A stretch of 64,000 nucleotides of DNA. It comes from an uncultured Collinsella sp. GTDB lineage: Bacteria > Actinomycetota > Coriobacteriia > Coriobacteriales > Coriobacteriaceae. The translations under genes were made by a program, and so were the position numbers. Shown here in pieces: positions 13,986-35,289 of the stretch (positions within the stretch are counted from its first letter, which is position 1; each line of letters begins with the position of its first letter). The stretch lies in assembly GCA_900544935.1 (NCBI GenBank), contig UQXB01000002.1, positions 4,110-68,109 on the forward strand, given 5' to 3'. The notes below the pieces were generated by a model, which was not told the origin of the DNA, did not search any database, and was given only the letters and a program-made list of their open reading frames with translations.

Positions 13986-14085
13986 TGTTATTCTTCCTTT
14001 CGATACGGCGGACGAATCCGCCAACGTTTACTGCAAGTCTTCTCGTCAAGCGTGTTGACTGCCCCACGCGAATGGGAGCTACGCG

Positions 14086-14943: not shown

Positions 14944-14960
14944 GCTGGGCATCTCCTCTC

Positions 14961-16523: not shown

Positions 16524-16533
16524 CGGGCACCTC

Positions 16534-20054: not shown

Positions 20055-21255
20055 ATGAACGATTTCTCCTTCTACTCCCCCACCCGCTTTGTCTTTGGGC
20101 GAAAAGCGACCGACAAGGTTGGGGGACTCTGTCCGCCTCCGGCTACCGCTGAGCGCTCATTGTCTACGGCAGGGGTTCCGCAGTTCGCTGCGGAACGCTC
20201 GTCCGCGTGAGGGCATCGCTCGATGCCGCGGGCGTGGAGCACATCGGGCTTGGAGGGGTGCGTCCAAACCCCGAAATAGGCTTGGCACGAGAAGGCGTCG
20301 AGCTCGCACGGGCAAACGACGCCGACATCATCCTGCCCGTGGGCGGCGGCTCCGTCATGGACTGCGCGAAGGCCATCGCACTGGGGCGGTATACGACGGC
20401 GACGTATGGGACTTCTTCCGCAAGCGCGCCGTTCCCGCCGACCGCATCGACGTCGCCTGCGTGGTGACCATCCCCGCATCCGGTTCCGAGGCCTCTAACT
20501 CCTGCGTTATCAGCAACGACGAGGAGCACCTCAAATGCAGCATTAACACGGACCTCAACCGCCCGGCCATCGCCTTCCTCGACCCGGAGCTGACCTTCAG
20601 CCTGCCCGCCTGCCAGACCGCCGCGGGAGTGACCGACATGATCGCCCATATCATGGAGCGACTCTTCTCCGGCGAGCCCGCCGTGGGCGTAACCGACAAC
20701 ATCGCCTGCGGGCTAGTGCGCGCCGCGAGGGAGGCGGCGCCCAAGGTGATGGAGAACCCCGATGACTACGACGCCCGCGCCGAGATCATGTGGGTGGGTA
20801 CGCTCGCCCATAACGCCCTGCGCGACGGCGATTGGACCTGCCGCGGCCTTGAGCACGAGCTATCCGCACTGGACACCAAGATCACGCACGGCGCCGGCCT
20901 CGCCGTCATCTTCCCCGCCTGGATGCGCTACGTATGGCGAGAGCACCCTGAGCGCTTCCTGGAGTTCAGCGCCCAGGCCCTTGGCATCGAACCCATCGAT
21001 TCGGACGCGGACGAGCTCGATGTGGAGGTAACCCCCGAGCAGGCAATCGAGTACGCGGTCGAAGCGACCATCGACGAGCTGCAGGATTTCTTCGTCTCGC
21101 TGGGAATGCCGCGCGCGCTATCGGAGTTCGGAGTCACCGAGGACGATATCGAAAAGATGATTCCGGGCCTCAAGATCAACCGCGGAGAGCTCTTCGGCAG
21201 CTTCAGGAAGCTCACGCTGGACAACGCGAGAAAGATTTACCGCAGCGCACTCTAG
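20055..21255 (+). pseudogene. iron-containing alcohol dehydrogenase (Fe-ADH / butanol dehydrogenase-like) disrupted by two frameshifts
   Basis: Frame 0 gives the N-terminus MNDFSFYSPTRFVFGRKATDKVG and then stops. The reading continues in another frame (ALIVYGRGSAVR…VRASLDAAGVEHIGLGGVRPNPEIGLAREGVELARANDADIILPVGGGSVMDCAKAIALG). It then shifts again at a GGGG run near 20388 into the frame of ORF 20089..21255 (AVYDGDVWDFF…). All three pieces together match the Fe-ADH family. Confidence 0.7.
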
Positions 21256-21345
21256 GAAACAGATGCCAGTCCCCCACGGGCGAGCAGCACGGCGGCCCCC
21301 GCAAACCAGAAACGGCGCCGCTCCCGCGACGCCGTCATATTCCCT

Positions 21346-21391
21346 GGTGCCCCCGGGCGGATTCGAACCGTCGACACCCGCTTTAGGAGAT
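21346..21391. repeat. attL: 46-bp direct repeat, a partial copy of the tRNA-Arg 3' end
   Basis: TGGTGCCCCCGGGCGGATTCGAACCGTCGACACCCGCTTTAGGAGA is identical to 34680-34725 inside the intact tRNA-Arg gene. Confidence 0.75.
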
Positions 21392-21581
21392 ATGATTTAA
21401 TGCTACCCCCTACCATTCATCAAGCATCATTGAACAGCATATAACCGCAGATAAACATAGCAGTTTGTGTCTTTTGCCTCCGGTAGCTGCGCCTACGCTT
21501 TTACAAACATATTACTAACAGCTTTAGCTAAACTGCACTCAATGAATTGTTGAAAACTATTCAAAGAAACGGAGCGCAAAG

Positions 21582-22829
21582 ATGACAGAACAGCCACTAA
21601 TTAGCGGAAGAGGCACGTGTTGGAAAGACAAGAGATCACCTAACACCTATCGCTATTATTTTTCCCTTGGAGTCAAGGACCCTAAGACGGGGCGCTACAA
21701 ACGATCCCCAACTTATACAGTCCGTTGCAAGACTAAAACAGAAGCTAAGGCTGCAATGCAGGCCAAGCTGGCTGAAATCAACTCCTCTGGCACGATCACT
21801 AAAACTAAAAAGCCCACTTTGCTTGCGTCCTACTGCTGGGCCTTTCATGAAAATAGGGACACCGAGCTTGCGCCAACGAGCTATGAAAGAGAAGCGTACG
21901 ATTGCAGGCATATCGAAGACCTATTCGGTGCGTTTCAGACAATTGAGGGGCTAACTCCCGATCTAATCGAAGAAACATATGCCGAAGCTCGTCGTACGGG
22001 AAAATACAAACCATCAGAGCTTGTACGAATCAATGCGAAACTGCGTCAGATTTTGTCGAATGCAGTCGCAAAGAGAATAATTGACCGAAACCCCTGCGCT
22101 ACCGTTCATGTTCGCAGACCACGCAACAAAAGAGAATCACTGACAATCGACCAAGTAGCTACCCTATGCACACATCTTCAACACATTGAGCTCACCGCCG
22201 AAGCTGTTGGTACACTAGTACTAGTGTATACGGGCATGCGGAAAGGCGAGATGCTGGGCCTCGAATGGCGCGATTGGGACCCTGCCAATAAAACCTTGAA
22301 AATTGACAGGCAGTACACCAACGACCATGAACTGAGGGCACCCAAGTCACAAGAAAGCCAACGCAAAATCCCCGTTGGAGAAACCTTGGCCGAACGTCTT
22401 CAATCATGGTCAGCCATACAAAAAGAGCTCCTGGCCTCTCTGGGGCTGTCCCAGACTGGCAGCACTCCCATCATTAGCGATATTGCTGTCGAGCAAGGGA
22501 TCCCTACTGTCTGTCACATGAAAAACTACATCTTCAACCATTGGTTTCGCGATTTCGCAGTTAGCTGCAATCTTGGAATCTATGAGCCGAACAATTCGAC
22601 TGGCGGAAAACTATATAAGGGCATCTGCCCGCATCAGCTCAGGCATTGTGTAAGCACTTTTATGCTGGCGAACGGATCGGACGTTAGAAGCGTGCAAGGT
22701 ATTCTTGGCCACGCGGACCCCAATATCACGCTCAAAACGTATACAAGCCTCGTTCAACAATCAGAAATAAAAGCAGTTAAAGGCTACGAAGCCTTCATCA
22801 ACGCCTATATACAGAGAAGCGAGAAATAG
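21582..22829 (+). CDS. int: tyrosine-type site-specific integrase
   Basis: C-terminal catalytic region …CPHQLRHCVSTFMLANGSDVRSVQGILGHADPNITLKTYTSL (R-H-R-Y motifs). GGAG RBS. Adjacent to attL. Confidence 0.85.
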   Translation: MTEQPLISGRGTCWKDKRSPNTYRYYFSLGVKDPKTGRYKRSPTYTVRCKTKTEAKAAMQAKLAEINSSGTITKTKKPTLLASYCWAFHENRDTELAPTSYEREAYDCRHIEDLFGAFQTIEGLTPDLIEETYAEARRTGKYKPSELVRINAKLRQILSNAVAKRIIDRNPCATVHVRRPRNKRESLTIDQVATLCTHLQHIELTAEAVGTLVLVYTGMRKGEMLGLEWRDWDPANKTLKIDRQYTNDHELRAPKSQESQRKIPVGETLAERLQSWSAIQKELLASLGLSQTGSTPIISDIAVEQGIPTVCHMKNYIFNHWFRDFAVSCNLGIYEPNNSTGGKLYKGICPHQLRHCVSTFMLANGSDVRSVQGILGHADPNITLKTYTSLVQQSEIKAVKGYEAFINAYIQRSEK

Positions 22830-23047
22830 CATGTTTTTCATTCATCGTTTATTTCATAATATTACGGTACTATAATACCGTTTCCGCAGGTAGATGCTTT
22901 ATTTGATTGACATCTAATGCGTTTTAATACATGCTAAAGCTGTCAGATGGCTACGCATGTAGTCATAGAAACCGGCCCCCCAAGTGCTTATGAACCTGGT
23001 ACGTCTTACAAGCACAGGGAGGGCCCTCATTGAAAGGATAGCTCATC

Positions 23048-23293
23048 ATGGCTACTCCAAAGATTAGCACTCAGGCGTCCACACCGACTTTCCCCACTGG
23101 TGCCGCTCAGTGCGATCGGTTGCTCCGCGTTAACGATATCCGCGAACTCACTGGCTGGAGCGAAAACACCGCACGCAAGTTTATGCGAGAGTCCGGCAAG
23201 CTCATCCAGATCCATCGCTCTAATTACATGTTTGAAAGCTCGTTCTACGAGCTTTTCAAGCAGCTTGAAGGTCGTACCGCCCACCTTGATTAG
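23048..23293 (+). CDS. small HTH DNA-binding protein, excisionase/AlpA-like
   Basis: 81 aa. LLRVNDIRELTGWSENTARKFMRESGKL resembles an MerR/Xis-type HTH. Lies immediately downstream of the integrase. Confidence 0.5.
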   Translation: MATPKISTQASTPTFPTGAAQCDRLLRVNDIRELTGWSENTARKFMRESGKLIQIHRSNYMFESSFYELFKQLEGRTAHLD

Positions 23294-23302
23294 GTGGTAA
23301 AC

Positions 23303-23689
23303 ATGAGCGAGCTTCCGTCGATTTCCGACATATTTAGCGATGATGCTACTGAGCAACGAGAGATTACGGGAAAAATGGATAAGGCTATTTTTATTTCAGT
23401 GCCCGAGTGGGCGTGCTGCGTCACCACCGTTGCCGCCGAGCGTCTCATCCTCGGCCTTGTATGGAAGTTTGGAAAACCTTCCAAAAACAAACGGCCCATG
23501 GGCTTCTGCGCTAAAAGCAAATGGATTGAGGATCACTACCGCCTGAGTAAGAACACGATATCCCGGGCCTATACCTCTCTGAAGGATAAGGGGTATATTC
23601 AAAAAGTTGGTGATGGCAGCTGGATGCTTAATTACGCCGCAATCTACCGCGCCGCGATTGAAAACGCTTGGGAGCCTCCGAAACTTTAA
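23303..23689 (+). CDS. winged-helix DNA-binding protein (replication-initiator / repressor-like)
   Basis: ATG at 23303 with GGTGG 5 nt upstream. C-terminal KNTISRAYTSLKDKGYIQKVGDGSW resembles a wHTH. Function inferred only from fold-like motifs. Confidence 0.4.
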   Translation: MSELPSISDIFSDDATEQREITGKMDKAIFISVPEWACCVTTVAAERLILGLVWKFGKPSKNKRPMGFCAKSKWIEDHYRLSKNTISRAYTSLKDKGYIQKVGDGSWMLNYAAIYRAAIENAWEPPKL

Positions 23690-24141
23690 GCCCACAAACC
23701 GACTATCGAGGTCGTGAGAGTCGGTCACCGTCAGGATGCCCACAAGAACATGCCGCGGATGTAAAATGAAGCAGGGTCGAACCGAAACAGTTCCCGGACA
23801 ATTGGTGTCCGGCCAGACACTTCGATTCGACCCTTTCTCATGCCTGCATCTAAAATACTCCCACAATCATTCTCGACATCTTTAACGCCCTCACCTCCTG
23901 CCACCAACACGTCGTAGACGCTATTTACAACGAATCGATATGGCCGCCCGTTCTTTAAGGCACGTGTTACCATGAAAACGTGCGGTATTTCTCCAACCGA
24001 AAACCTGCGTGAACGCATGACTTGAGACGCCTTTTAGAACTCACCGATCGCAGGGCGAACACAAATCAACAGCGGCCGTGCATTGTTCCCAGCCATATGG
24101 CATGGCGGAGCCATGCCCGTTGTTGATTGGAGTGCCGCACC

Positions 24142-24711
24142 ATGGCAGACGAGAAGAAAATCAGGGAGATCTACGGCGTGAAGTCCGTCCTCGATGAGGC
24201 CGCCGAGCGGATCGAGGCGACGTGGCGGGAGAAGCTGCTGCGCGAGACGGGCGACCTCAGAACCGAGAACGCGTTGCTCAGGGCCCAGCTCGACGAATTC
24301 AACCGCAAGCTCGTCGAGGCGAGAGACCGGAACGAAAGACTTGAGGCCGACTGCAATGAGCGGGTCGCCTTTATCGAGGAGAAGTTCGAACTCGATACCG
24401 CGAGCCTCGAGCTCGAGAACAACGAGCTTCATGCCGCGAGCGTCAGATACCTCGCCGATGCCAGGGAGCTCGACAGGCAGGTCGTCCAGCTCCATGCCGA
24501 GGCCGTGGCCATGGTCGATGAGATCGAGCGCCTGCGCGGCGAGCGTGACGCCGCGCTGAAAGCCCAAGCCGAGTTGAACGACGCACTCCTGGCCCAGCGC
24601 GACCTGATGGCCGAGCTCGCCGCCCTCAAGGACCGCCTTGCCGCCTCCGAGCAGCGGGCGGCCGTGGCCGAGGCCAAGGTCGAGGTCATGACCCAGATGA
24701 AGGACGAGTAG
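24142..24711 (+). CDS. coiled-coil protein, hypothetical
   Basis: Heptad-rich Glu/Arg/Leu sequence with no TM. GGAG 9 nt before ATG. Convergent with the phosphoesterase operon. Confidence 0.45.
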   Translation: MADEKKIREIYGVKSVLDEAAERIEATWREKLLRETGDLRTENALLRAQLDEFNRKLVEARDRNERLEADCNERVAFIEEKFELDTASLELENNELHAASVRYLADARELDRQVVQLHAEAVAMVDEIERLRGERDAALKAQAELNDALLAQRDLMAELAALKDRLAASEQRAAVAEAKVEVMTQMKDE

Positions 24712-24753
24712 CCCCGCGCTTCTCCTGTCAGGCTGCTGATTTCTAGGAATCTT

Positions 24754-25491
24754 CTAGAGCGCTTCCAGAAGGTTCCTAGAACCGGGCGCAGCATCTTCGA
24801 TCGGCACGATGTCTCGGTAGATCAGGCGATGTCTGTCGTCGCGCCATTCGTCGCCGTGATAATGTCCGAAGAACCAGGCTCGGTAGCCGAGCCGCCCGTC
24901 GAGCTCGCCAAGGAATCGTTGCAGCCGGTCGCCTCGATACTCGCGCCCGCGCTCGCGGCACAGCTTCTCTGCCAGGACGGCAGGGGCCTCATGCGTCACC
25001 ACGTAATCGACCCTCCAGCCTACGCGGTCGAGCGAGGAACGGCAGTGGTCCATCTCCTCCTCGCTCGGCATCTCCTCGGGCCACCAGCTCCTCCCCTCCT
25101 TGCGATACTGCCTGTCGTTGCTTGCGGCACCGCCCATGGCAAGGACCGTGAGCCCACCGATGTCGAACACCTCCCCACGCATCAGGTGCAGCACGTGCGG
25201 TCGCGCCTCATGGACGAGCCCACCGTTCCACTCCCGCACCGGCAGTTCTGCCAGGGCGTGGTGGTTCTCATGGTTGCCGTCTACGAAACACGTGGTCCAG
25301 GGCTTCGACTCGAGCCAGTCGAGCCAGTATTTTTCGGCGTTGGACCCATCCCAGACAAAGCCGAAGTCGCCGGCCACGATCACCGCGTCATCGCGCGTCA
25401 GGGTCCGGCCCAGCGGCCAATTTTTGAAAGCAAACCGGCTGGACCCGTACTCGGCCCTGCCGTGCACGTCGCCTGTCACATAGACCGTCAT
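24754..25491 (-). CDS. calcineurin-like metallophosphoesterase (paralog 1 of 3)
   Basis: MTVYVTGDVHG…IVAGDFGF…FVDGNHENHHAL…GHYHGDEW metallophosphatase motifs. ATG overlaps the stop of paralog 2 (ATGA). Confidence 0.7.
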   Translation of the reverse strand: MTVYVTGDVHGRAEYGSSRFAFKNWPLGRTLTRDDAVIVAGDFGFVWDGSNAEKYWLDWLESKPWTTCFVDGNHENHHALAELPVREWNGGLVHEARPHVLHLMRGEVFDIGGLTVLAMGGAASNDRQYRKEGRSWWPEEMPSEEEMDHCRSSLDRVGWRVDYVVTHEAPAVLAEKLCRERGREYRGDRLQRFLGELDGRLGYRAWFFGHYHGDEWRDDRHRLIYRDIVPIEDAAPGSRNLLEAL

Positions 25492-26216
25492 CAGTACGCA
25501 CCCCACGGCAGGAGTTTGCCCCCGAGCCTCACGATCCGGTCATACAGCACCGTGTGCCGTTCGTCCGGATTGCCGTCTCGGTGAAAATGTCCGTAATACC
25601 AGTGCTTATAGTCCAGGCGGTCTTCGAGCTCGTCGAGGAATCCGGTCAGCCGGTCCACATCAGGGCGTTCCCAGCCTGGGTCCGGGTAGAGCGTCGGCGA
25701 GAGCATGCGCGTGGCGCAGGTATGGGTGATGACGCAGTCGACCTTCCAGCCGACCTCGTCGAGCTTTGCCCGCGCGGTATCGAAATCGCGCTCGTCCGGG
25801 AGCTCCTGAGGCCACCAGCTGGAATACGGCACGCGGTATTCCCTGTCCACGCTCGTGGCACCGCCCATGGTGAAGACCGTCGAGCCGTCGAGCTCGAAGA
25901 CCTCCCCGCGCATGAGGCGGCGGATGGACGAAGTATCCGACAGGCGCTGCGTCAGCCCGCCGTGCCACGGCTCCATGGGGCGCTCCTCCCAGTGGTCGAA
26001 GCGCTCGTGGTTGCCGTCGACGAACAGTACCGTGTAGGGGCGCGACTCCAGCCAGGCGATGTCGGCGCATTCCTCGGCAGAGAAGTCCCACGGAAAGCCA
26101 AAGTCGCCGGCAACGATGAGATAGTCGTCGCCGGTAAGGCTATCGCCAAGCTCCCAGTCGCGGAGCTTTTGCATGTCGAGCCCACCGTGGATGTCGCCCG
26201 TCACATAGACCGTCAT
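25491..26216 (-). CDS. calcineurin-like metallophosphoesterase (paralog 2 of 3)
   Basis: MTVYVTGDIHGG…IVAGDFGF…FVDGNHERF…YGHFHRD. N-terminal identity to paralog 1 is clear by eye. ATG overlaps the stop of paralog 3 (ATGA). Confidence 0.7.
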   Translation of the reverse strand: MTVYVTGDIHGGLDMQKLRDWELGDSLTGDDYLIVAGDFGFPWDFSAEECADIAWLESRPYTVLFVDGNHERFDHWEERPMEPWHGGLTQRLSDTSSIRRLMRGEVFELDGSTVFTMGGATSVDREYRVPYSSWWPQELPDERDFDTARAKLDEVGWKVDCVITHTCATRMLSPTLYPDPGWERPDVDRLTGFLDELEDRLDYKHWYYGHFHRDGNPDERHTVLYDRIVRLGGKLLPWGAY

Positions 26217-26851
26217 CGGATCGCCTCTTCCCTCTTGTACGCCGCCAGCTCGCGCTCGACCTGCCTGTCGCCGGTCTCGTTGACCCACCAGGGCCATTTC
26301 ACCCGGCCGCACGGCTCGTCGACTCCGGCGAACCATTCCCTCAGCTCGTCAAGACTCACCGGGGAGTGCCCGTTGGCATCGCAACCGACGTCGTAGCGCA
26401 GAAGGCCCTGCTTGCGGTTGAACCCGTTGTACGCGCCGCCGCTGCTGTGGATGTGCCCGTGGAGGTGCCACGATCCATGGCTCATGCCCTGCCAGTCGGC
26501 CATGGGGTAATGGCTCAGGACGATCTTCTGCCCGTCGATCTTGAGCACGCAGATCGGCGGCTCCACGGTGAAGGCGCCCGCGACCGCCGGCTGGGTCCAG
26601 TCCTTGTCGTGGTTTCCCGGGACGAGGTGGATGCGCCTGCAGGCGATCCGCTTGCGCAGCCCGTAGGCGTCCTGGGCGGTCATCTTGAATGAGAAATCAC
26701 CCAGGATGTAGAGTTCGTCGTCCACGGCAACCCTGCCGTTGATGCTGTCGACGATGGCGTCGTTCATCTGCCAAATCGTCTCCCACGGGCGGTCGGTGAA
26801 CTTCAGCACGTTCTCATGCCCGAAGTGGGTGTCGCTGGTAAACCAGATCAT
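26213..26851 (-). CDS. calcineurin-like metallophosphoesterase (paralog 3 of 3, more divergent)
   Basis: MIWFTSDTHFGH…ILGDFSF…VPGNHD…HLHGHIHSSG. AAGGAG RBS 8 nt before ATG at 26851. First gene of the three-gene operon. Confidence 0.7.
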   Translation of the reverse strand: MIWFTSDTHFGHENVLKFTDRPWETIWQMNDAIVDSINGRVAVDDELYILGDFSFKMTAQDAYGLRKRIACRRIHLVPGNHDKDWTQPAVAGAFTVEPPICVLKIDGQKIVLSHYPMADWQGMSHGSWHLHGHIHSSGGAYNGFNRKQGLLRYDVGCDANGHSPVSLDELREWFAGVDEPCGRVKWPWWVNETGDRQVERELAAYKREEAIR

Positions 26852-27114
26852 ATTTATGTCTCCTTCTGTCGCTAAAAAACGTTCTCCCTCGAGGTCAGGA
26901 GACGTTTTATGAGCGACATGAGGTGCATATCCCTCATGTTTCAAGCTCCAATCTGCCGGATTTGCCCAACTAAAAGTTTACGCCCACGCGCGAACAGGAT
27001 TTGATTTTTGAAATATGGACGAATTCCTCGTCAGGAGGGTAAAATGGTGCCGACGGCAGCCCAAGTTGTAGAGAGCTGGGCAGAGCCGTTGCTTAACGAA
27101 GTTAGGTCATCGTC

Positions 27115-27240
27115 TTAGCGACGGTGGCCTTTCTTTTTGGGCTTCGAACCCTGCTTGAGTGCCTTGGAAAGGCCGACAAGGGCCGTGAGGAGCGAGACCA
27201 TAGCGGTCAGGAGCTTCACGGACTCAGTGAAATCGGTCAT
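27115..27240 (-). CDS. 41-aa hydrophobic mini-protein with basic C-terminal tail (candidate type I toxin / small membrane peptide)
   Basis: GGAGGTG 6 nt upstream of the ATG. Translation MTDFTESVKLLTAMVSLLTALVGLSKALKQGSKPKKKGHRR with TAA stop. Below the ORF-track size cutoff. Confidence 0.4.
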   Translation of the reverse strand: MTDFTESVKLLTAMVSLLTALVGLSKALKQGSKPKKKGHRR

Positions 27241-27427
27241 GGGCATCACCTCCCATCGGATGGAGGACTCTGCCCGGCACGAGAGCTGCCGCCAGCAAGG
27301 ACGATTCTATCAGAGCGGCTGACTCCCGCCGATCAATTCATACTCCTCACCCTCGCCGAATTGCGAGCATGAAAGAATCGGCACTGAATAGCAGCGCGCT
27401 AGGGCACCGACGATAGGCTTTCCAAAA

Positions 27428-28627
27428 CTAGCGAGGCGTGTTGCCGTGCGAGTAGTCACCGCGATCGACGACGCGATCGTCCATCTGCCGCGATGCGGAG
27501 CTTCCGCCATGTGCTTGGCCTGCGGCGCGAACGCGGTCGTCGCCGGCATCGGGAACGGCGCCGGCGTAACGATTGCGAATCTCCCTTGCGTAACCGCGAC
27601 GCGCAAGAAGCTCATCGCGAACCGCCGGATCTTCGAGCAGATCTTCATCGCACTTCGGGGCAACGAATTTAGGAAACGAATTGTAGGCGACGCCTTTGCT
27701 CGCCTTCGCCTGCTCGACCCACGCCGAGTATGCTTTCTTGAGACGCTTGATGTAAATCTCACAACGTTTCTCGTATGGAAGGGCTCGCTCGGCTTCCAAC
27801 ACGTTATTTTCGAAAGCCATCTGCAACGACTTCAACGCGAAGCGCCCGTCGAGACGGGTCAGGTTGAAAGTGCACTTCGGATTGCCGGCCTCTTTGATAT
27901 CGAGATCTGTCGCATAGACTCGATTGTTCTTGATGAAAATGTCTACGCCCCATGAGGCAAGTAATTTCTTGAACTGCTCCATATTCTTTACGCGACCTTC
28001 GTCGATCGCAATATGGATCAGCTCGCGCAGATTGTTTTTATAACTGTACTCACCGCGACCGATAATCTCCTTTTCTGTGTCGCGCGGCTGGCGATCGCGA
28101 ATCTTCGAATTCTTCTTTCCCTTTTCGAGCTGAGTGAGATTCCAGGCCTCGTCCATTTCACGAACCCATGCAGCGCGTTCGTACTTTCCCTTGCGACCGC
28201 CGATGTCGCAACGCTTGCCGGTGTCAAGGTCTGTCCGGTTGATCGCCATGTGCACTGCGTAGCGTTTTCCCGCCTTATCGCTTTCTTCATGCAGCGCGAG
28301 AATCACTTGTTGATGCGGATAGTGCTTCGCAAGCCATTGCTCCGCGTAGGCCAAACATGCATCGGGAGTCATCTTGCCCCCGTTGCATGAGCATTCTTCC
28401 GGAAGGAACGCGAGGATCTGATGAAGCAGGATTACGTTTTTGGCTCCGGCTCTCGACGGTTTGTCGTGATGGAAAACCTTTCTGGTTCTATCCATTTTCG
28501 AAAACCAGCGATCGCTGTATTCGATGTTCCAGCCACCACGCACAAGCGCATCTTTTCCGTTGATGTATTTACGGACGTTCTTCGCATACCGTTCACTCGA
28601 AACACTCTTCTGCTTAATGACGGTCAT
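27428..28627 (-). CDS. mobilization relaxase (MobA/MobL- or Mob_Pre-like)
   Basis: N-terminal relaxase-like region with His-rich motif ILALHEESDKAGKRYAVHMAINR. ATG overlaps the mobC stop. Gene pair with MobC. Confidence 0.6.
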   Translation of the reverse strand: MTVIKQKSVSSERYAKNVRKYINGKDALVRGGWNIEYSDRWFSKMDRTRKVFHHDKPSRAGAKNVILLHQILAFLPEECSCNGGKMTPDACLAYAEQWLAKHYPHQQVILALHEESDKAGKRYAVHMAINRTDLDTGKRCDIGGRKGKYERAAWVREMDEAWNLTQLEKGKKNSKIRDRQPRDTEKEIIGRGEYSYKNNLRELIHIAIDEGRVKNMEQFKKLLASWGVDIFIKNNRVYATDLDIKEAGNPKCTFNLTRLDGRFALKSLQMAFENNVLEAERALPYEKRCEIYIKRLKKAYSAWVEQAKASKGVAYNSFPKFVAPKCDEDLLEDPAVRDELLARRGYAREIRNRYAGAVPDAGDDRVRAAGQAHGGSSASRQMDDRVVDRGDYSHGNTPR

Positions 28628-29156
28628 TTTGGTCACCGCCGACGAAATATCGCTTCTCAAACTCGTCGATGAAACGGTCCAGCTTACGCCCAACTTGGTA
28701 AACCTTTTCGAGCGTGCGGAAAACAGCTTTCTCGTTGTACGCGGGAAGCCCCTGGGCGTTCACAAAATACATCAGCTGATTGAGGTTTGTTCCTTCCTTC
28801 AAAAGTTCGTGATAAATCTTGTCGATCGACGCCCGATCGACATCGATTTTCTCGACATTCCCTTTGAGCAGTACGCGACGTGCATACGCACTGACAGTCA
28901 TATCGAGGGAATCAGCATTGCTTTCAATTTTCGTTTTTTCTTCCGGTGAGACCCGGACGTGAATGTCATCGGTTCGGAATTTCTGGTCAGCGATTTCTGA
29001 AAAACCAAAATCGATATCGAGATCGTCGGCATTGCACAAAGCAAAGCGGATGAGTTCCGCCTCGCTCATCTCATGTCGCTTTGCGATTGCAGTGATGGCT
29101 TTCTTCTCTTCATCGGAAAGAGACGCCTTGACGGTGTGTGGGCGGAGCCTACTCAT
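28614..29156 (-). CDS. mobC: MobC-family relaxosome accessory protein (ribbon-helix-helix)
   Basis: SDEEKKAITAIAKRHEMSEAELIRFAL (RHH). VSPEEKTKIESNADSLDMTVSAYARRVL typical of MobC. Confidence 0.6.
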   Translation of the reverse strand: MSRLRPHTVKASLSDEEKKAITAIAKRHEMSEAELIRFALCNADDLDIDFGFSEIADQKFRTDDIHVRVSPEEKTKIESNADSLDMTVSAYARRVLLKGNVEKIDVDRASIDKIYHELLKEGTNLNQLMYFVNAQGLPAYNEKAVFRTLEKVYQVGRKLDRFIDEFEKRYFVGGDQNDRH

Positions 29157-29516
29157 GATTCCTCCGGAAAACGAATCAGCGATCGGAGAGGCCTCCGATC
29201 AAAACCTGCTATGCGATTCGCTTTCCTTTTAATGAGGAACGGCTGGCGTCGTTCCAAAATGAAGAATCGTCTCCGCGATTCTTCATCGCGAAGTTCCAAC
29301 TTCACGATAACCTTATCGCCGTAGCAGGCGGTAAGCAAGGTCTGTGGCGTGGTGTTTTTGGGGTCCGAATGGGCCCACAAAAATGCCACCCACAGTCATC
29401 TTGCAATCACCGGTACGGCGATTGGGCGGAACGCAGTGTAGACATGGAATAAGAGGCCTCATTCCAAGCGAGATGCCTCGCGTTGTCGAAACGAAAAGTG
29501 AAGACCGTGAGCGGAA

Positions 29517-29603
29517 GCGAACTTTTAACGCGAGGGATGCCGAGTGTTAAGAGTTCGCTGTAGCGAGAGCGAAGCGGTACTGCGAATGCGAGGGATGCCG
29601 AGT
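29517..29603. promoter_or_regulatory. candidate oriT: 13-bp inverted repeat with 16-nt loop plus a direct repeat of the loop sequence
   Basis: GCGAACTTTTAAC-GCGAGGGATGCCGAGT-GTTAAGAGTTCGC at 29517-29558. GCGAGGGATGCCGAGT is repeated at 29588-29603. Lies upstream of mobC. Confidence 0.35.
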
Positions 29604-29846
29604 TTTTGCATTACCGCGCAGCGGACTCCGGGCGAGGGCTGGAGCAAGTTGATGGAAGACCTTACCGATTTGCGGAAGGTTTTGCCCGAAGCATCCGGCA
29701 CCGCCGGATTCTTTTGGAACGGCCTCTCGTTTGATTGCTTTCCTATCGTTTGCTCCCAGACTGGGCGTCTAAAAAAGGCGGCCGAAACCGGCCGCCCGCA
29801 AATAAATATTTATTTACCGAATGTAAGAGGAGAGGAACGATGCACA

Positions 29847-30518
29847 TTACTCCCAGTGGCCGGCGACGTCGACAACCCAATGCTGCCCCGTAGCCTGCTG
29901 TTCATAATGTCCCTGGTCCTCAGATGTGGTATACGAATCGTTTACGACAGATCCTCCGATGCCGCCGTTGTCCATATCATTATGAGCCCACGAATAGGCG
30001 GCATCTTCGGAATCGAAGGGCCCTACCATAGTACCACCATGGTTGACCCAGAAACGAGGATGGCGCGTATACACTACATTCGGCACCCAGACCTGGCTGT
30101 AATCTGTCTCCCAGTGTCCCTGCTCGGCAACCCACTTCTTCTGGCTACCGCCGTTGGAAGAGGAATTGTTGCTGCCGGAACTCTGCGAATTGCTGGAATT
30201 CTGCTTGGAGTCGGAGGAGTTTCCCTTGCTGTCAGACTTCGACGAGTCGGAAGACTTGTTATCCTCTTTCTTGGAGTCATCGGACTTCTGGTCCTTGCCG
30301 TCGGATTCTTTCTTCTCCTCGTTCTTGGTTCCAGAGGCTTGCGCCGCCTTTTCTTCGCTCGGCTTCTTTTTGTCTTTATTCTTTACCGCTGTGACGGCCC
30401 TTTCCGTAGAGCCGCTTCCTTGCTTTGCAACGCTGGCACATCCAAGTTGAGGTGCCGAAAGGCACACCAGAAGCGCAACGATAATAGCCTTTGTTCTCAC
30501 ACCGATCTCCCTGCCCAT
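29847..30518 (-). CDS. Ser/Lys-rich secreted lipoprotein
   Basis: Signal peptide with lipobox-like LSAPQLGC-A. Long low-complexity KKPSEEK…SSDSSKSDSKGNSSDSKQNSS region. C-terminal globular Trp/His-rich domain. Confidence 0.55.
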   Translation of the reverse strand: MGREIGVRTKAIIVALLVCLSAPQLGCASVAKQGSGSTERAVTAVKNKDKKKPSEEKAAQASGTKNEEKKESDGKDQKSDDSKKEDNKSSDSSKSDSKGNSSDSKQNSSNSQSSGSNNSSSNGGSQKKWVAEQGHWETDYSQVWVPNVVYTRHPRFWVNHGGTMVGPFDSEDAAYSWAHNDMDNGGIGGSVVNDSYTTSEDQGHYEQQATGQHWVVDVAGHWE

Positions 30519-30565
30519 GAAACCGGGCGTTGGACACCAGCCGATATCCAACGCTCGGCTCGCTT

Positions 30566-33500
30566 TTACATCTGCTCGCGGCGCTTCTTTTGATCGAGGA
30601 AGACGCCGGCTGCCACGAGGACGGTACCGCCGATGACGAACGTCTCGCCGATGAGTCCCGCGCGGTCGCCGGTCTGGGCGAGGCTGCCGGGCTGGGCGGT
30701 ATCCGTGCCGGCGAGGTGCTTCGGGGTGTATGCCGCCTGCTGCTTTGCGGCCTCCTCTGCCTCCTGTCGTGCGATCTCATCGGAAAGCTTCTGCTCCGCC
30801 GCGATGCGGTCGGACTTCGCCGACTCGTAGGCGGCGAGTGCCGCATCATAGCCGGGCTGGAGCCCGTCCACCGCGGCCTGCTTCTCGTCCAGGATTGCCT
30901 TGGCGGGCGCGACCTTGGCACGTGCCTCGACTGCTGCGGCGAAAAGCGCGTTGAGGGCGTCATCCGCGTTCGCGTCATGGCCGGAAGCGATCGCCGCGCC
31001 GGCGTCGATGGAGTTCAGCTTCGACAGCTTGGCGTCTGCCTGCGCCTTCGCCTGCTCGGCGGCGGAGACCAGGGACTCGGCGGCGATGGCATCCGCCTTC
31101 GCGGCATCGAGGGCGGCCTTGGTGTCATTGACGGCCTTTACTGCATCCTGCTCGCGCTGCTGTGACTCTGCGAGCTTCGCGGCAAGGCCGGTGAGGATGT
31201 CGAGGTTCGACTGTGCGTCATCGAGATCGGTCTGGGAGCCGGTGAGCCTGTCGGCGGCAACGCCGGTGTCGGTCTTTGCGGCATCGACGGCACGCTGGGC
31301 ATCCGCGAGGGCGCGTGCGGTGGCGTCCGCCTTTTGCTCGGCGGCGGCGAGGACGGTCGCTTTCTCGGTCTGATCGGCTACCGCCGAGTCATGGACGCTC
31401 TTTGCTGTATCGAGCGCCTTCTTGGCGTCGGCGACGTCCTGGAAGAACTTCGCGAGGTCGGCGTTCGCATCGTCCACGCCCTGCTGCTTGGATGCGGTGT
31501 CCGCCTTGGCGGAGTCCAGCTTGGACTGTGCGGTCGTTACGGCTGCGTTGGCGGCATTAAAGGCGACCTGCTTCTGCTGGACGGTCGACTTTGCCGTATC
31601 GACGGCTACGTTGGCGGCATCGAGGTCCGATTTCGCCGCATCAAGCTCGGTCTGGGCATCCGTGACGCCCTGCTGCTTGGCGGCGACATCAGCCTTGGCT
31701 ACATCGACGGCACGCTGGGCATCGGTGACATCCTGCTTCGCGGCATCGACACCTGTCTGTGCGGCATCGAAGGCATCCTGCTTCTGCTGGACGGTTGCTG
31801 CGGCGCCGGCGGCTGCCTGCTGCTTGGATGCGAGATCGGCCTTGGCTGCGTCGAGTGCGCTCTTGGCGTTCTTGAGACCGTTGATATAGGAGGTCAGCTT
31901 CTGCTCGTACTCGTCGACGGAGATGGCTCCGGTATTCCAGCCCGAACCGGCCCAACCGCCGTATTGCAGCGTGAGCGAGAACGTCAAACGGGTGTCATCG
32001 TTCAGACCGCATCCCATGACAGCATAGTCAGGGTTGATGATGTTCATGTAATGACCGATACGGTAGTAATCGAACTTGTCCTGGTTGGCGTACCAGAAGT
32101 CGTAGGCGTCCTTTCCGGAAAGATTCGTCGCACCAAGGGATGCTGCAGTCTTGTCAAACAGATCCTTTTCCTGATAGATCCAGGCCTTGCAGGGGTCGCG
32201 ATAGCCCCAGGCAAGGTTTTCACCGACATCGAACTGCTGGGCATGCTCTACATTTTTCGTCGAATAGTTTGCATCTGCAATCGCTGCCGCAATGAGCTTA
32301 TAGCTTACCTCAAGCTCGGAAAGGCCGACGGACTTACGGTAGGCGTTCACGTTCTTCATGACCGTGATGGACGAAAGCATGTTTTCAAGGCCCGTTGCGT
32401 CGAGACTGTTTCCGATCTCGGTGTAGTCTTTGTACGTGCAGTTCTGGATGATCTCGATGGCTGAATCGGCACCCATGGCCTTGAAGAAACCGATGGCTCC
32501 CTGCTTGAGCTGCGCGTCTGCGAGATCCACCTTCGTTTGTGCCTCGTCGACCTTCTGCTGGGCGGCGGTCACGGCCGCGTCTGCGGTATCCTTTGCGGTC
32601 TTGGCGTTCGCGAGCTCTACGTCTGCGGCTGCCTTGGCGGACTCGGCGTCCTTGACAGCCTGCTTCGCGGCGTCCAGCTTGGCGACGGCGTCGGCATTCG
32701 CCTGCGTGGCGGCATCGAGGTCGGCGTTCGCGGCATCGAGTGCGGACTGGGCGGCGTTCACGCCGGATTCGGCATCGGTCGCGGCCTGCTGCTTCGCGGA
32801 GAAGGACGCCTGGGCATCGTTCAGTTCGGTCTGTGCCGTTGCTGCAGCGGACTGCGCCTGCTCGAGCTCGGACTCGCACTGGGACTGTGTCGCTTGTGCG
32901 GCAGCGAGGGCTGCCTCTGCGTCCGCGACCTTCTGTTTTGCCGCATCGTACTCCGGACCGCTGGCGCCTGCCTCCGCTGCGGCGAGGTCGGTTTTCGCCT
33001 TCTCGTAGGCGGCGCTGGCGGCTGCGGCCTTCGCATCCGCTGCGTCCTTGTTCTGCTGGGCTGCGACAAGGACGGCATCGGCGGCATCCTTGGCAGACTG
33101 GGCCGCAACCAGCTTGGACTGGGCATCGGCAAGCGTCGCGTTGGCGTTGTCAAGTTCGGCCTGTGCCCTGCTCACGGCATCCGTGGCGTCGCGCACGGCC
33201 TGCTCGGCGGCACTGATTGCCTCCGGGGTGGCGCTTACGGCATCTGCCTTGGCTTTATCGAGGGCATCCTTGGCATCCTGGGCCGCCTTGAGGGCGGACT
33301 GGTACGCTTCGTCCTTCTCGGACGCATCTGCCTTGGCGTCTGCGAGACCCGCCTTCGCCTGCTCGAGGTCCTTGCCGGCGGCATCGGCGACGTCCTTGCC
33401 CTCCGCGACCTGACGGGCGTACTCGTCCATCGCCGCACGGTCGGCTGCCGTGCCGGCGCTGACCGCCGAATCGTAGGATGCCTTGGCCTGGTCGCGGGCG

Positions 33501-33865
33501 GAAGCCGCCTCGTTGTAGGGACCGGCGGCCTCATCGTAGGATGCCTTGGCGGCGTCCTCCTTCGCCTTCGCCTCGTCGACTGCCTTCTGCAGGTCCGCGA
33601 TGGTCTGTGCGGCGGATTTCGCGCCGGTACCGGATGCCGCGCCGGCGTGGGCGGCGATCGGCGACATCACGGCGGGGTGCTGTGTGCCCCCGTCACCGGT
33701 CTGGGCGAATGCCGTGAACGGTGAGATGAGGCTCGATCCGGTCATGGCGGCCATGGTCGCCGCGGTGACGGTCAGACGCGCGATCCCCTTCGGAGTGTGA
33801 ATCTTTTTGTTTGGCAGTGCGGCGAAGTGATCGCCGCCGACAGCGAAATGCTTTCCCTGAGTCAT
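30566..33865 (-). CDS. 1099-aa sortase-anchored (LAQTG) coiled-coil surface protein with embedded CAP/SCP/PR-1-like domain
   Basis: AAGGAA RBS. N-terminal signal peptide. Hundreds of residues of Ala/Asp/Lys/Gln-rich repeats (AKADxxxAxxxLDxAK…). Central globular region with CAP-like motifs (VGENLAWGY, IGHYMNIINP). C-terminal LAQTG followed by a hydrophobic stretch and a KKRREQ tail. Confidence 0.7.
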   Translation of the reverse strand: MTQGKHFAVGGDHFAALPNKKIHTPKGIARLTVTAATMAAMTGSSLISPFTAFAQTGDGGTQHPAVMSPIAAHAGAASGTGAKSAAQTIADLQKAVDEAKAKEDAAKASYDEAAGPYNEAASARDQAKASYDSAVSAGTAADRAAMDEYARQVAEGKDVADAAGKDLEQAKAGLADAKADASEKDEAYQSALKAAQDAKDALDKAKADAVSATPEAISAAEQAVRDATDAVSRAQAELDNANATLADAQSKLVAAQSAKDAADAVLVAAQQNKDAADAKAAAASAAYEKAKTDLAAAEAGASGPEYDAAKQKVADAEAALAAAQATQSQCESELEQAQSAAATAQTELNDAQASFSAKQQAATDAESGVNAAQSALDAANADLDAATQANADAVAKLDAAKQAVKDAESAKAAADVELANAKTAKDTADAAVTAAQQKVDEAQTKVDLADAQLKQGAIGFFKAMGADSAIEIIQNCTYKDYTEIGNSLDATGLENMLSSITVMKNVNAYRKSVGLSELEVSYKLIAAAIADANYSTKNVEHAQQFDVGENLAWGYRDPCKAWIYQEKDLFDKTAASLGATNLSGKDAYDFWYANQDKFDYYRIGHYMNIINPDYAVMGCGLNDDTRLTFSLTLQYGGWAGSGWNTGAISVDEYEQKLTSYINGLKNAKSALDAAKADLASKQQAAAGAAATVQQKQDAFDAAQTGVDAAKQDVTDAQRAVDVAKADVAAKQQGVTDAQTELDAAKSDLDAANVAVDTAKSTVQQKQVAFNAANAAVTTAQSKLDSAKADTASKQQGVDDANADLAKFFQDVADAKKALDTAKSVHDSAVADQTEKATVLAAAEQKADATARALADAQRAVDAAKTDTGVAADRLTGSQTDLDDAQSNLDILTGLAAKLAESQQREQDAVKAVNDTKAALDAAKADAIAAESLVSAAEQAKAQADAKLSKLNSIDAGAAIASGHDANADDALNALFAAAVEARAKVAPAKAILDEKQAAVDGLQPGYDAALAAYESAKSDRIAAEQKLSDEIARQEAEEAAKQQAAYTPKHLAGTDTAQPGSLAQTGDRAGLIGETFVIGGTVLVAAGVFLDQKKRREQM

Positions 33866-33987
33866 TGCTATTCCATTCCTTTTCCGTGCCCTATCCGACT
33901 GGGCATCAGAGTGCTTTCCAATAGAGATAATTATGCGCCTTAACTGGGATTGTTGTATATAGTCCGTTGGCATAAATACAACAATCC

Positions 33988-34236
33988 ATGACTCTTTTTG
34001 TCATGGATATCTCGCCGCTACAACAATCCTTTGGTCTACGCTGCAAAGAACTCAGATCAGAGTCTGGTTACTCACAAGAGCAATTTGCGAACCGCATTGA
34101 CATGGACAGGTCTTACTACGCCTCGATAGAGGTCGGGCGAAGAAATGTCAGTCTTTCTAACCTCTCTAAAATTGCCAATGGATTCAACATATCAATTGCT
34201 GCACTTATGACTGGTGTCACTGATAAAAAGGATTAG
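33988..34236 (+). CDS. XRE-family (Cro/CI-type) HTH transcriptional regulator
   Basis: LRCKELRSESGYSQEQFANRIDMDRSYYASIEVGRRNVSLSNLSKIANGF is a canonical HTH_3. Confidence 0.7.
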   Translation: MTLFVMDISPLQQSFGLRCKELRSESGYSQEQFANRIDMDRSYYASIEVGRRNVSLSNLSKIANGFNISIAALMTGVTDKKD

Positions 34237-34386
34237 TCCATCATCAGCGAACGCAGTGAGCGTATCAATCGACGGCGTAGCCGGCGGCAAGGACACGGTA
34301 CGTGGCCGCGCAGCGAGCTTTGCGAGCGAAGGGGACGGCATCGCCGTCCCTATTTCTTTCTAATCTATTTCTCTATATATTGGTTT

Positions 34387-34550
34387 CACCAAAATGGGTA
34401 TGAAACAAGCTTCTGAACAGGCTTTTTATCAGAGAATTCAAAGCTGCCGAATCATCAAAATGGTGATATTTTTTACCCAAAAGAGGGAAGCGCGTCACCA
34501 AAATGGAACCGACTAACAGCTGTTGAAAACTTTTATCCCCAAAATGGTGA
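34387..34550. repeat. four copies of CAAAATGG(G/T)(G/A) in an AT-rich stretch next to attR (candidate arm-type or regulator binding sites)
   Basis: caccAAAATGGgta (34387-), catcAAAATGGtga (34453-), caccAAAATGGaac (34496-), ccccAAAATGGtga (34537-). Confidence 0.45.
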
Positions 34551-34679
34551 TTTCCTGTTTTCAGTGGAAAACTCGGGAAGTCATAATATTTACTTACCAG
34601 ATTTACAAACGGAAGCGGTTCTTAACCCCAAAACCAGAACAGGTCAGAAGCAAAAATAACTCCTGACCTGCGATTTTCC

Positions 34680-34755
34680 TGGTGCCCCCGGGCGGATTCG
34701 AACCGTCGACACCCGCTTTAGGAGAGCGGTGCTCTATCCCCTGAGCTACGGAGGC
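34680..34755 (-). tRNA. tRNA-Arg (anticodon CCT); attR / integration target
   Basis: Reverse complement GCCTCCGTAGCTCAGGGGATAGAGCACCGCTCTCCTAAAGCGGGTGTCGACGGTTCGAATCCGCCCGGGGGCACCA gives a cloverleaf with anticodon loop CUCCUAA and encoded CCA. Confidence 0.85.
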
Positions 34756-34813
34756 ATGTTGTACTAGTGTAGCAGATTTACTGCATCGCCATACGTCGCA
34801 TGACTAGACTTCG

Positions 34814-34882
34814 AAGTTGCGGTGGAATAGTTCCTGTCTGAAGCATCTAAAGCCGTATTTAGAAACTATTTCACTGCAACTT
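34814..34882. repeat. intergenic long palindrome family, copy 1 (conserved AAGTTGCGGTGGAATAG arms)
   Basis: AAGTTGCGGTGGAATAGTT…AACTATTTCACTGCAACTT with an inner secondary palindrome TCTAAAGCCGTATTTAGA. Confidence 0.5.
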
Positions 34883-34890
34883 ATGAGGAG

Positions 34891-35289
34891 CTAGTTGCCT
34901 TTGTGGAAGAGGCTTTTGATGACGGAGGGGATGCTCTTGGCGCCCTTGGCGGTCACATCGATAAAGTCGGGCGAACGCACGAGCTTATCCTCGTCGACGT
35001 ACTTGCGGACCGCGCGAAGCGTCTCTTTGTCGTCGCGCGTCGAAAACGTAAAGTGACCGTTGTCCTTGGTGAAGATGGCAAAACGCGTAATCTTCTTGGT
35101 GCCGCGCAAAACCTCGGCGGCAATATAGTCGACCTCGTCCCACGGGATTTGAATATAATCCTCGGGATTGCGCTCGTTATAGTACTCGAACGCCTTATTG
35201 CCCACCATCACGTTACCGTGGCTGGTAAGCCCCATCAGGCAGGTTGCCGGCGTTGCCAGATCGACCGTGCTGTTCTGAGATTGCGCCAT
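34891..35289 (-). CDS. DUF956-family protein (ManO-like, mannose PTS operon accessory)
   Basis: Sequence …NERNPEDYIQIPWDEVDYIAAEV…FTFSTRDDKETL. Lies directly downstream of the PTS IID gene. ATG at 35289 with GGAGG upstream. Confidence 0.6.
   Translation of the reverse strand: MAQSQNSTVDLATPATCLMGLTSHGNVMVGNKAFEYYNERNPEDYIQIPWDEVDYIAAEVLRGTKKITRFAIFTKDNGHFTFSTRDDKETLRAVRKYVDEDKLVRSPDFIDVTAKGAKSIPSVIKSLFHKGN

Follow-up and report, generated by a model that had tools for sequence, protein, structure and literature searches.

Collinsella is a prevalent genus of the human gut. The DNA analysed here, 64,000 nucleotides of contig UQXB01000002.1 from an uncultured Collinsella sp. (assembly GCA_900544935.1; hereafter the window), carries at positions 21343-34725 a gene island that is bounded by a 48-bp direct repeat and ends within a tRNA gene. 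With a probability that we put at about 0.8, this island is an integrative mobilizable element (IME) of the Collinsella aerofaciens group, inserted site-specifically in the 3' end of tRNA-Arg(CCT).

Integration site and integration module

A single tRNA gene was found in the window by ARAGORN, an intact tRNA-Arg(CCT) at 34680-34755 on the minus strand; Rfam agreed (59.9 bits), and the Rfam scan gave nothing beyond this tRNA. The 3' end of the tRNA gene (46 nt) and 2 further nt are duplicated exactly, 21343-21390 being identical to 34678-34725 over 48 bp by a repeat finder and by direct reading, and the direct repeat reaches 51 nt if one mismatch is allowed. Probed with 23 nt of the core, up to 3 mismatches being allowed, the window gave two matches only, both of them the repeat copies, where 0 were expected in shuffled sequences. 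An earlier annotation made from the letters of the window (the sequence-only reading) had described the intact tRNA-Arg gene and its repeated 3' end, and both were confirmed by ARAGORN, Rfam and the repeat finder. The 46-bp repeat that it had placed at 21346-21391 is real, but its left coordinates were one base off (the tRNA-derived 46 nt of the left copy occupy 21345-21390) and the exact repeat measures 48 bp. The site and the integration module comprise the following features.

21343-21390, no strand: left junction core, a displaced copy of the tRNA-Arg 3' end plus 2 nt (exact repeat; left half in the empty-site alignment)
21391-21581, no strand: left arm, non-coding, upstream of int (k-mer comparison of the two arms)
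21582-22829, plus strand: tyrosine integrase (Int), 415 amino acids (aa) (PF00589, E 4e-20; phrog_1 integrase, E 2e-49)
23048-23293, plus strand: Xis-like small helix-turn-helix (HTH) protein, 81 aa, candidate excisionase or recombination directionality factor (RDF) (position, size)
23294-23689, plus strand: small winged-helix/HTH protein, 104-131 aa by choice of start (weak matches only)
34237-34677, no strand: right arm, non-coding, of low GC content (0.47) (k-mer analysis of the reconstructed attP)
34678-34725, no strand: right junction core, within the intact tRNA (exact repeat of 21343-21390; empty-site alignment)
34680-34755, minus strand: tRNA-Arg(CCT), the integration target (ARAGORN; Rfam; same gene at empty sites)

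The integrase and the Xis-like HTH gene, which the sequence-only reading had noted next to the repeat, are both present, the former recognised by PF00589 and the latter by no hidden Markov model (HMM). The 81-aa open reading frame (ORF) lies just downstream of int and is kept in every copy of the element, including one with an int variant of 76% identity (L107); its role as Xis is one that we infer from position and size. The small HTH protein that follows matched HTH_36 (E 0.0065) and the N-terminal parts of phage replication initiators and of DnaD-like loaders (E 6e-5 to 7e-4). In L107, a 7.7-kb contig, the variant integrase is accompanied by the Xis-like and HTH genes and by the three phosphoesterase genes described below in inverted orientation, and the gene of a DUF4143 ATPase, also present on plasmids, follows in place of the coiled-coil gene.

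The k-mer comparison showed that two short motifs of the left arm, ACTAACAGCT (21514) and TGTTGAAAACT (21548), are common to the right arm. There, C(A/C)CCAAAATGG(T) is in addition repeated four to five times, at about 34386, 34456, 34495 and 34539, and a hairpin directly precedes the core. In the reconstructed attP, these motifs and repeats would be compatible with arm-type Int/Xis sites. A comparison of GC content with the flanks, proposed together with the original annotation, was carried out and revealed a mosaic island, with values of 0.47-0.53 in int, relaxase and right-arm parts versus about 0.60-0.65 in the flanks. All ORFs of the element in the window are intact.

Empty and occupied sites in related genomes

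A search of one genome per species with the flanking Fe-alcohol-dehydrogenase gene assigned the window to the aerofaciens group of Collinsella. The loci that it yielded (given, like others below, by L numbers) were compared with the flanks, repeat, island and tRNA of the window, and ARAGORN was run on a subset of them. About 16 Collinsella genomes have an empty site, in which the complete tRNA stands directly after the left flank and is followed by the right flank; in the clearest of these (L012, L014, L016, L020, L022, L023, L026, L028 and L030) the left flank next to the site matches that of the window at 99.4-100% identity. Variants of the element occupy the site in 9 genomes (L011, L015, L017, L018, L025, L033, L043, L050 and L055), all beginning at the identical base after the core, and a different element occupies it in 2 (L013 and L044). 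In a three-way alignment, the empty attB consists of the left half of the left junction and the right half of the right junction, joined across the 48-bp core. Because the empty attB is thereby the recombinant of the two junctions, it bears the signature of site-specific integration, and Int, the 48-bp repeat and the attB recombinant together make up a site-specific integration module with defined att sites. The observation that the sequence-only reading had named as contrary to its proposal, relatives with the same 13 kb fixed between the same flanks, was not made; near-identical flanks with an empty site were found.

The element and its flanks differ in their degree of conservation. In L001-L009 the element is 96-98% identical to that of the window where the flanking chromosome is only 89-95% identical, and in L018, L043 and L050 the element is only 90-93% identical where the flanks are 99.4-99.6% identical. 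These mismatches mean that the histories of element and chromosome are decoupled in both directions, which is evidence of horizontal movement. For excision and for mobilization in trans by a helper, this decoupling and the presence/absence polymorphism at the site are indirect evidence. The exact Int protein is indexed in 385 blocks of a public assembly collection, and the 90% cluster of Int has 4205 member sequences; the exact protein of the XRE-family regulator listed below appears in 1960 blocks. Gene order does not vary across 20 independent contigs save for insertion sequence (IS) insertions and one extra 148-aa ORF, and the copies examined, at least 20, are all chromosomal and all at the tRNA site.

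An IS30-like transposase (HTH_38) insertion is carried by some copies of the element (L093 771-2033, L096 1455-2807). The extra 148-aa ORF lies between the genes of the small peptide and the relaxase in many copies (L092, L093, L095, L097 and L098, about 2660-3120). L097 has a split MPE2 gene (the second phosphoesterase, see below) and L009 a shortened relaxase.

A circular excised form, which the earlier annotation had proposed to look for, was sought by scanning metagenome contigs for the exact 72-nt attP junction, and no circle was found. The sole exact match to an attP-type junction lies inside a 144-kb contig, where the upstream side is a different element, so that the match represents a tandem array.

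Putative transfer functions

The genes and the non-coding region attributed to transfer lie in the middle of the island.

27428-28627, minus strand: relaxase, 399 aa, of divergent MobA/VirD2 type (PF03432, E 6e-7)
28614-29156, minus strand: relaxosome accessory protein, ribbon-helix-helix (RHH), NikA-like, 180 aa (PF21983, E 2.5e-21; DUF6290; RHH_1)
29157-29846, no strand: candidate origin of transfer (oriT) or regulatory region, 690 bp, upstream of the nikA-relaxase operon (fold, repeats)

The PF03432 match covers residues 48-183 of the 421-aa relaxase ORF and scores 30.3 bits versus a gathering score of 24.6. The nearest typed relatives are relaxases of small mobilizable plasmids of Staphylococcus and Lactococcus, assigned to MOBP by MOB-suite and 25-30% identical. 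The protein was accordingly found to have the make-up of a MOBP/MOBQ-type relaxase, namely an N-terminal nuclease domain and an RHH accessory gene upstream. The nikA-like gene overlaps the start of the relaxase gene, so the two genes form an operon. Of the pair of MobC and relaxase recorded in the sequence-only reading, the relaxase (PF03432) and the presence of an accessory partner stand, but the partner is NikA-like by Pfam (PF21983) and not MobC.

The 690-bp region upstream of this operon is predicted to fold as a single strand far more stably than shuffled sequences (z = -7.7). It has several hairpins (e.g. 29349-29389), a GCGAGGGATGCCGAG-like motif occurs in it three times, and it is largely conserved on the Collinsella plasmid NZ_OY725718.1 described below. 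No nic sequence of the RSF1010/pC221 type was found in the island. On its structure and position, 29157-29846 is the best oriT candidate. An oriT-like hairpin had been noted before; a structured region does lie upstream of the relaxase operon, but it contains many hairpins and repeated motifs rather than one hairpin.

The island lacks a complete mating pore, i.e. a type IV secretion system (T4SS): no VirB4, VirD4/TraG, TcpC-like or other T4SS family was matched by any of the 13 ORFs in Pfam, NCBIfam and PHROGs. The proposal of an IME at tRNA-Arg(CCT) is thus supported by the empty sites, Int, the Xis-like gene, the relaxase with its accessory protein and the lack of a T4SS and a coupling protein.

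Genes shared with Collinsella plasmids

The remaining genes of the island are listed here.

24142-24711, plus strand: coiled-coil protein, 189 aa (weak coiled-coil type Pfam matches only; in all copies)
24754-25491, minus strand: metallophosphoesterase 1 (MPE1), 245 aa (PF00149, E 2e-11; phrog_1649, E 2e-34)
25491-26216, minus strand: metallophosphoesterase 2 (MPE2), 241 aa (PF00149, E 2e-7; phrog_1649, E 2e-36)
26213-26851, minus strand: metallophosphoesterase 3 (MPE3), 212 aa, of another subfamily (Metallophos_2 and Metallophos, weak; phrog_547, E 1e-47)
27115-27240, minus strand: 41-aa peptide MTDFTESVKLLTAMVSLLTALVGLSKALKQGSKPKKKGHRR, hydrophobic helix and basic tail (GGAGG ribosome-binding site)
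29847-30518, minus strand: lipoprotein, 223 aa (lipobox ...SAPQLGC, read from the sequence)
30566-33865, minus strand: PrgA-like CAP surface protein, 1099 aa from M37 (1135-aa ORF, extending to 33973) (PF00188)
33988-34236, plus strand: XRE-family regulator, 82 aa, divergent from the CAP operon (HTH_3, E 1e-14)

Three circular plasmids of C. aerofaciens, NZ_OY725718.1 (27 kb), NZ_CP084005.1 (30 kb) and NZ_CP048434.1 (23 kb, from the type strain ATCC 25986), share the window region 23966-34219 at 80-95% nucleotide and 66-98% protein identity, and only 21391-23966 is specific to the integrated form. On NZ_OY725718.1 and NZ_CP084005.1, the proteins closest to those of the window by identity were MPE3 (97-98%), MPE2 (95-97%), the 41-aa peptide (95-98%, two plasmids) and the lipoprotein (97%, NZ_OY725718.1), followed by MPE1 (90-92%), the CAP protein (86-93%), the relaxase (86%, NZ_OY725718.1), the coiled-coil protein (66-89%, the upper value on NZ_OY725718.1) and the XRE regulator (77-79%). 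Like the island, the plasmids have the coiled-coil gene, the three MPE genes with the 41-aa peptide, and the XRE-CAP pair, in part with the lipoprotein; NZ_OY725718.1 has in addition the relaxase-NikA pair and its upstream region. Unlike the island, they are circular replicons with ParA/ParG or ParA/CopG, DnaB and toxin-antitoxin genes, they have no int, xis or att core, and the order of their modules is different.

Since the coiled-coil protein, the MPEs, the peptide, the lipoprotein, the CAP protein and the XRE regulator occur in all copies and also on plasmids, they belong to the backbone of a mobile element and are not host cargo. The sequence-only reading had listed the same gene content correctly but had taken it for an unusual cargo, whereas these genes are a backbone common to the three C. 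aerofaciens plasmids. The IME looks like a plasmid backbone joined to an integration module that replaces the replication and partition genes.

All three Collinsella plasmids are typed as non-mobilizable in PLSDB/MOB-suite. At least NZ_OY725718.1 nevertheless encodes an intact relaxase and its NikA-like partner, which means that this relaxase clade is divergent and escapes standard typing.

A surface protein with a predicted PrgA-like architecture

The largest protein of the island begins with a signal peptide (...LISPFTAFA|QT) followed by an Ala-rich helix of ~370 aa, a central CAP domain (PF00188, E 2e-10, residues 541-665), a second helix of ~390 aa, the motif LAQTG, a hydrophobic segment and a basic tail (KKRREQM). 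By inspection of the termini it is thus a protein predicted to be secreted and anchored to the wall, with signal peptide, sortase motif, hydrophobic segment and basic tail. An exhaustive search for relatives of the CAP domain gave 691 representatives at 50% identity, many of them proteins of 850-1200 aa with the domain in the middle. Across 35 homologues, H73, E81, E98 and H137 (domain numbering) do not vary, and in the alignment they fall on the conserved H/E/E/H positions of GAPR-1. An AlphaFold 2 (AF2) model of the domain has the CAP fold with a predicted local distance difference test (pLDDT) score of 96.8, and the central domain accordingly has the cavity of His, Glu, acidic and His residues. 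The AF2 model of the full-length protein (mean pLDDT 69) places helices at residues 85-453 and 650-1043, and the breaks in the two correspond in their distance from the CAP domain. Compared with the PDB, this model matched PrgA best (6z9l; E 2e-13, 841 columns), and antiparallel coiled coils of SMC type came next.

PrgA (Sec10) is the surface-exclusion protein of the Enterococcus faecalis plasmid pCF10 (PDB 6Z9L, 6Z9K; bioRxiv 10.1101/2020.06.18.156562). It holds its CAP domain ~40 nm from the wall on an antiparallel two-helix coiled coil made of the N- and C-terminal halves and has an LPXTG anchor (bioRxiv 10.1101/2020.06.18.156562). The Collinsella protein resembles PrgA in its signal peptide, its C-terminal sortase motif, its central CAP domain with a conserved metal-binding cavity, its halves predicted to be long helices with matching breaks, and the location of its gene on a transmissible element. 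It differs in its longer arms (about 370-390 residues versus about 250-270), in its anchor (LAQTG versus LPXTG), in having no PrgB or PrgC genes adjacent and in its carrier, which is non-conjugative (without a T4SS); the likeness is one of architecture, with a Foldseek identity of 17-19%.

Several results weigh against a functional equation of the two proteins. The TM-scores of the full-length match to PrgA are low (0.15-0.21), because long rods do not superpose, and with the model of the CAP domain alone PrgA ranks only 12-13. PrgA was not retrieved from the PDB sequences by phmmer or by a profile of 35 sequences, and the domain profile retrieved the eukaryotic CAP proteins GAPR-1, Pry1 and PR-1; a search of PDB sequences with the CAP protein gave nothing useful. 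No PrgB-like adhesin is encoded next to the CAP gene, the neighbour being the 223-aa lipoprotein. Finally, of four distant CAP/coiled-coil homologues that were looked up, two stand in ordinary chromosomal contexts (the contigs of the other two were too short), and these contexts weaken a transfer of the PrgA function.

A serious rival reading, though a somewhat unlikely one, is that the CAP/coiled-coil protein and the lipoprotein are factors of host interaction or colonisation, such as adhesins or binders of mucus, lipids or sterols, and so a true cargo unrelated to conjugation. The family is large, with its hundreds of representatives; homologues built likewise around a central CAP domain are found in ordinary surroundings on the chromosome, with no conjugation genes nearby; and the CAP domain is closest to eukaryotic GAPR-1 and Pry1, with no PrgB-like partner. 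In Collinsella, however, the CAP gene was found on the IME and on three plasmids, in each case together with its XRE partner, and the only solved protein of this overall architecture is the surface-exclusion protein PrgA. That the CAP protein works like PrgA and modulates cell-cell contact in mating is therefore the leading, though unproven, reading of the predicted structure. An effect on cell-surface behaviour had been guessed for this gene earlier, and a PrgA-like structural counterpart fits that guess.

The lipoprotein gene follows the CAP gene on the same strand. Its product has a low-complexity Ser/Lys/Asp linker before a C-terminal domain of unknown fold, and no family match was obtained in the scans. 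The XRE-CAP pair is kept on the plasmids, and since the XRE gene is divergently paired with the CAP operon there too, it is likelier to regulate this operon than to be a master switch of excision; the XRE protein is probably the regulator of the CAP operon.

Phosphoesterases and the 41-aa peptide

The three phosphoesterases in tandem, as the sequence-only reading had them, were confirmed as Metallophos proteins by the family scans. MPE1 and MPE2 are paralogues (48% identical), and no pairwise similarity was found between MPE3 and MPE1. In the PDB, MPE3 matched 1xm7 (aq_1665, an uncharacterised protein of Aquifex; E 7e-10). Homologues of MPE3 were found in 1258 phage records from many hosts and those of MPE1 and MPE2 mainly in actinophages and contigs of faecal viromes, and the human faecal virome contigs with the best MPE1 matches have only that one gene in common with the island.

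In cluster A mycobacteriophages, the phosphoesterase Bxb1 gp47 has roles as RDF and in replication, and a relative of gp47 has a counter-defence role (PMC12287305). The idea that the MPEs are relatives of Bxb1 gp47 or A10ZJ24 gp48 was rejected, no significant BLASTP alignment of any MPE to gp47 being obtained; they have only the Metallophos superfamily in common. A reading of the MPEs as a defence system was likewise rejected, PADLOC giving only a marginal, partial match to the candidate system PDC-S10. The strict linkage of the MPEs to mobile backbones suggests a function in establishment, DNA processing or counter-defence.

The 41-aa peptide is called as a gene in nearly all copies, and no family match was found for it in the HMM scans. 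Antisense to the 3' end of its ORF there is a promoter-like site at 27016-27045, and a terminator-like hairpin with a T-run at 27104-27130 on the plus strand. This pair, a match to consensus only, is reminiscent of type I toxin-antitoxin loci. On these features the peptide is a candidate type I toxin or membrane peptide.

Nature of the element

A number of results count against an IME. The family scans gave no significant HMM match for the 81-aa Xis-like protein. The match of the relaxase to PF03432 is weak (E 6e-7), and none was obtained for it in PDB or NCBIfam. No nic site was found in the candidate oriT, no helper conjugative element was identified, and the scan for the attP junction yielded no circle. 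The MPEs, finally, are without an assignable substrate, without likeness to gp47 and without a convincing PADLOC match.

An integrated plasmid, that is, a Collinsella plasmid which captured an integrase and is still an autonomous replicon after excision, seems decidedly unlikely. About 10 of the 13.3 kb are common to the three circular plasmids at 80-95% identity, and the small HTH protein is weakly like the N-termini of replication initiators and has a 31%-identical relative on NZ_OY725718.1. Nevertheless, the island is without the DnaB, Rep and ParA/ParG genes that the plasmids have, its copies (at least 20) are all chromosomal at the tRNA site, and the attP junction turned up in no circular contig.

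The perfect 48-bp repeats and the intact state of every ORF in the window argue against a fixed or decaying island, in which the repeats would be relics and the strain polymorphism would date from old events or reflect deletions where the repeats recombined homologously. So do the occurrence of the exact Int protein in hundreds of samples, the decoupling of element and flank identity both ways, and the existence of two Int variants and several backbone variants at the same site. Such an island is very improbable, even with the failure to detect a circular form and the IS30-like insertions or disrupted genes of some copies (L093, L096, L097 and L009) on its side. A phage-related satellite or defective prophage, moved by transduction and not by conjugation, is extremely improbable: the integrase (phrog_1) and the MPE families (phrog_1649, phrog_547) are of phage type, an XRE regulator is present and MPE1 homologues occur on human faecal virome contigs, but the ORF scans found no capsid, terminase, portal, primase or packaging genes, the relaxase and NikA-like pair is present on a backbone common to plasmids, and the virome contigs share the single MPE gene only.

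The IME, in turn, has a well-defined class for comparison in the IMEs of Gram-positive bacteria, which have been catalogued in streptococci (PMC7563491). Like these, it has a tyrosine integrase with a small RDF-like gene, an insertion in a tRNA 3' end that leaves a direct repeat and restores the tRNA, a relaxase and an accessory protein of its own, a presumed oriT, no T4SS, and tandem accretion at the same site. Unlike them, it resides in an actinobacterium of the Coriobacteriia, its PF03432 relaxase is very divergent, and its non-transfer genes are a conserved set shared with plasmids and not a cargo of resistance, metabolic or defence genes. In literature searches, no paper was found that describes this Collinsella IME family or the transfer genes of the related plasmids. 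The element is a newly defined and very prevalent example of an IME, with a conventional overall biology.

Other elements and variable DNA at the site

A second Collinsella IME family uses the same attB. It stands alone in L013 and L044 and in tandem in L003 (1-9800), L093 (10950-20249) and L098 (10970-20249); L108 was also assigned to it. It is like the element of the window in its related tyrosine integrase (about 38% identity; Int length 426-435 aa), Xis-like gene, NikA-like protein, relaxase and attB, and it forms tandem arrays with it. It is unlike the element in having its own VirD4/TraG-type coupling protein, a DnaB_C protein and a defence cargo (GmrSD, MmeI, HNH), and in having neither MPEs nor a CAP protein.

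One or two extra tandem units of 129 bp were seen beside the tRNA in L032 (9481-9791), L029 (11200-11383) and L009 (9630-9762). Each unit combines 53 bp from the left flank with the initial 24 nt of the tRNA 3' end and a further 52 nt of different sequence, and the units resemble scars left by another element that once integrated and was excised. In L010, one copy of the 53-bp flank/partial-tRNA unit stands on either side of a small islet with an EcoRII-type restriction endonuclease and a Dcm methylase (6533-9761), immediately to the left of the studied element.

To the right of the tRNA, the first 136 nt (34756-34891 of the window) are replaced by ~230 nt of other sequence in most genomes with an empty site, and the version of the window is kept in L027 and L029. 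To the left, ~9.7 kb of the window (11645-21342, with a DcuC transporter, a GntR regulator, the Fe-alcohol dehydrogenase and others) are missing from many Collinsella contigs, in which the PknB/PBP/FtsW/PP2C/FHA cluster (1875-11644) directly adjoins the tRNA site; L010 has a different sugar-utilisation cassette in their place. That 11645-21342 is an older island at the tRNA site was considered and rejected, as there is no third copy of the att repeat; it is a variable segment of the chromosome.

Proposed mechanism and significance

In the mechanism that we propose, Int, with the 81-aa protein as directionality factor, would excise the element as a circle, with an attP made up of the 48-bp core between arms in which short motifs recur. 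An oriT in the structured 690-bp region upstream of the nikA-relaxase operon would be nicked by the relaxase and the NikA-like protein, and a conjugative element in the same cell would lend its T4SS and coupling protein for export of the relaxase-bound strand. Once in the recipient, the element would be reinserted into tRNA-Arg by Int. The XRE-controlled operon would supply a PrgA-like wall-anchored protein, with its CAP head on an antiparallel coiled-coil stalk of ~50 nm, together with the lipoprotein, and the most likely role of the two would be to modulate cell-cell contact in mating, through surface exclusion or by preventing aggregation. The 41-aa peptide may be a stabiliser resembling a type I toxin. 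The MPE trio and the coiled-coil protein would probably serve establishment or the processing of DNA or nucleotides in the new host, which is the weakest point of the proposal.

A more far-reaching idea, which we regard as unlikely, is that the set of modules common to the IME and the plasmids (three phage-type MPEs, the 41-aa toxin-like peptide, the coiled-coil protein, and the PrgA-like stalk protein under XRE control with the lipoprotein) is an unrecognised 'hitch-hiker toolkit' of non-conjugative elements. The PrgA-like protein would then allow a mobilizable element to impose surface exclusion, or some other interference with the formation of mating pairs, on a helper that the element does not encode, and the MPE trio would have a new function in establishment or counter-defence, with nucleic acids or signalling nucleotides inside the recipient cell as its targets.

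For Collinsella, the analysis adds an element that is among the commonest mobile parts of the genus and very common in gut metagenomes, and it marks tRNA-Arg(CCT) as an integration hotspot for at least two IME families. IMEs and plasmids of the Coriobacteriia exchange whole modules, and a relaxase clade is exposed that standard plasmid typing calls "non-mobilizable". The element also offers a tractable case in which to study the role of a PrgA-like protein and a conserved MPE trio on an element unable to conjugate alone. Current concepts of such elements are not overturned by it; they are extended to a poorly studied phylum.

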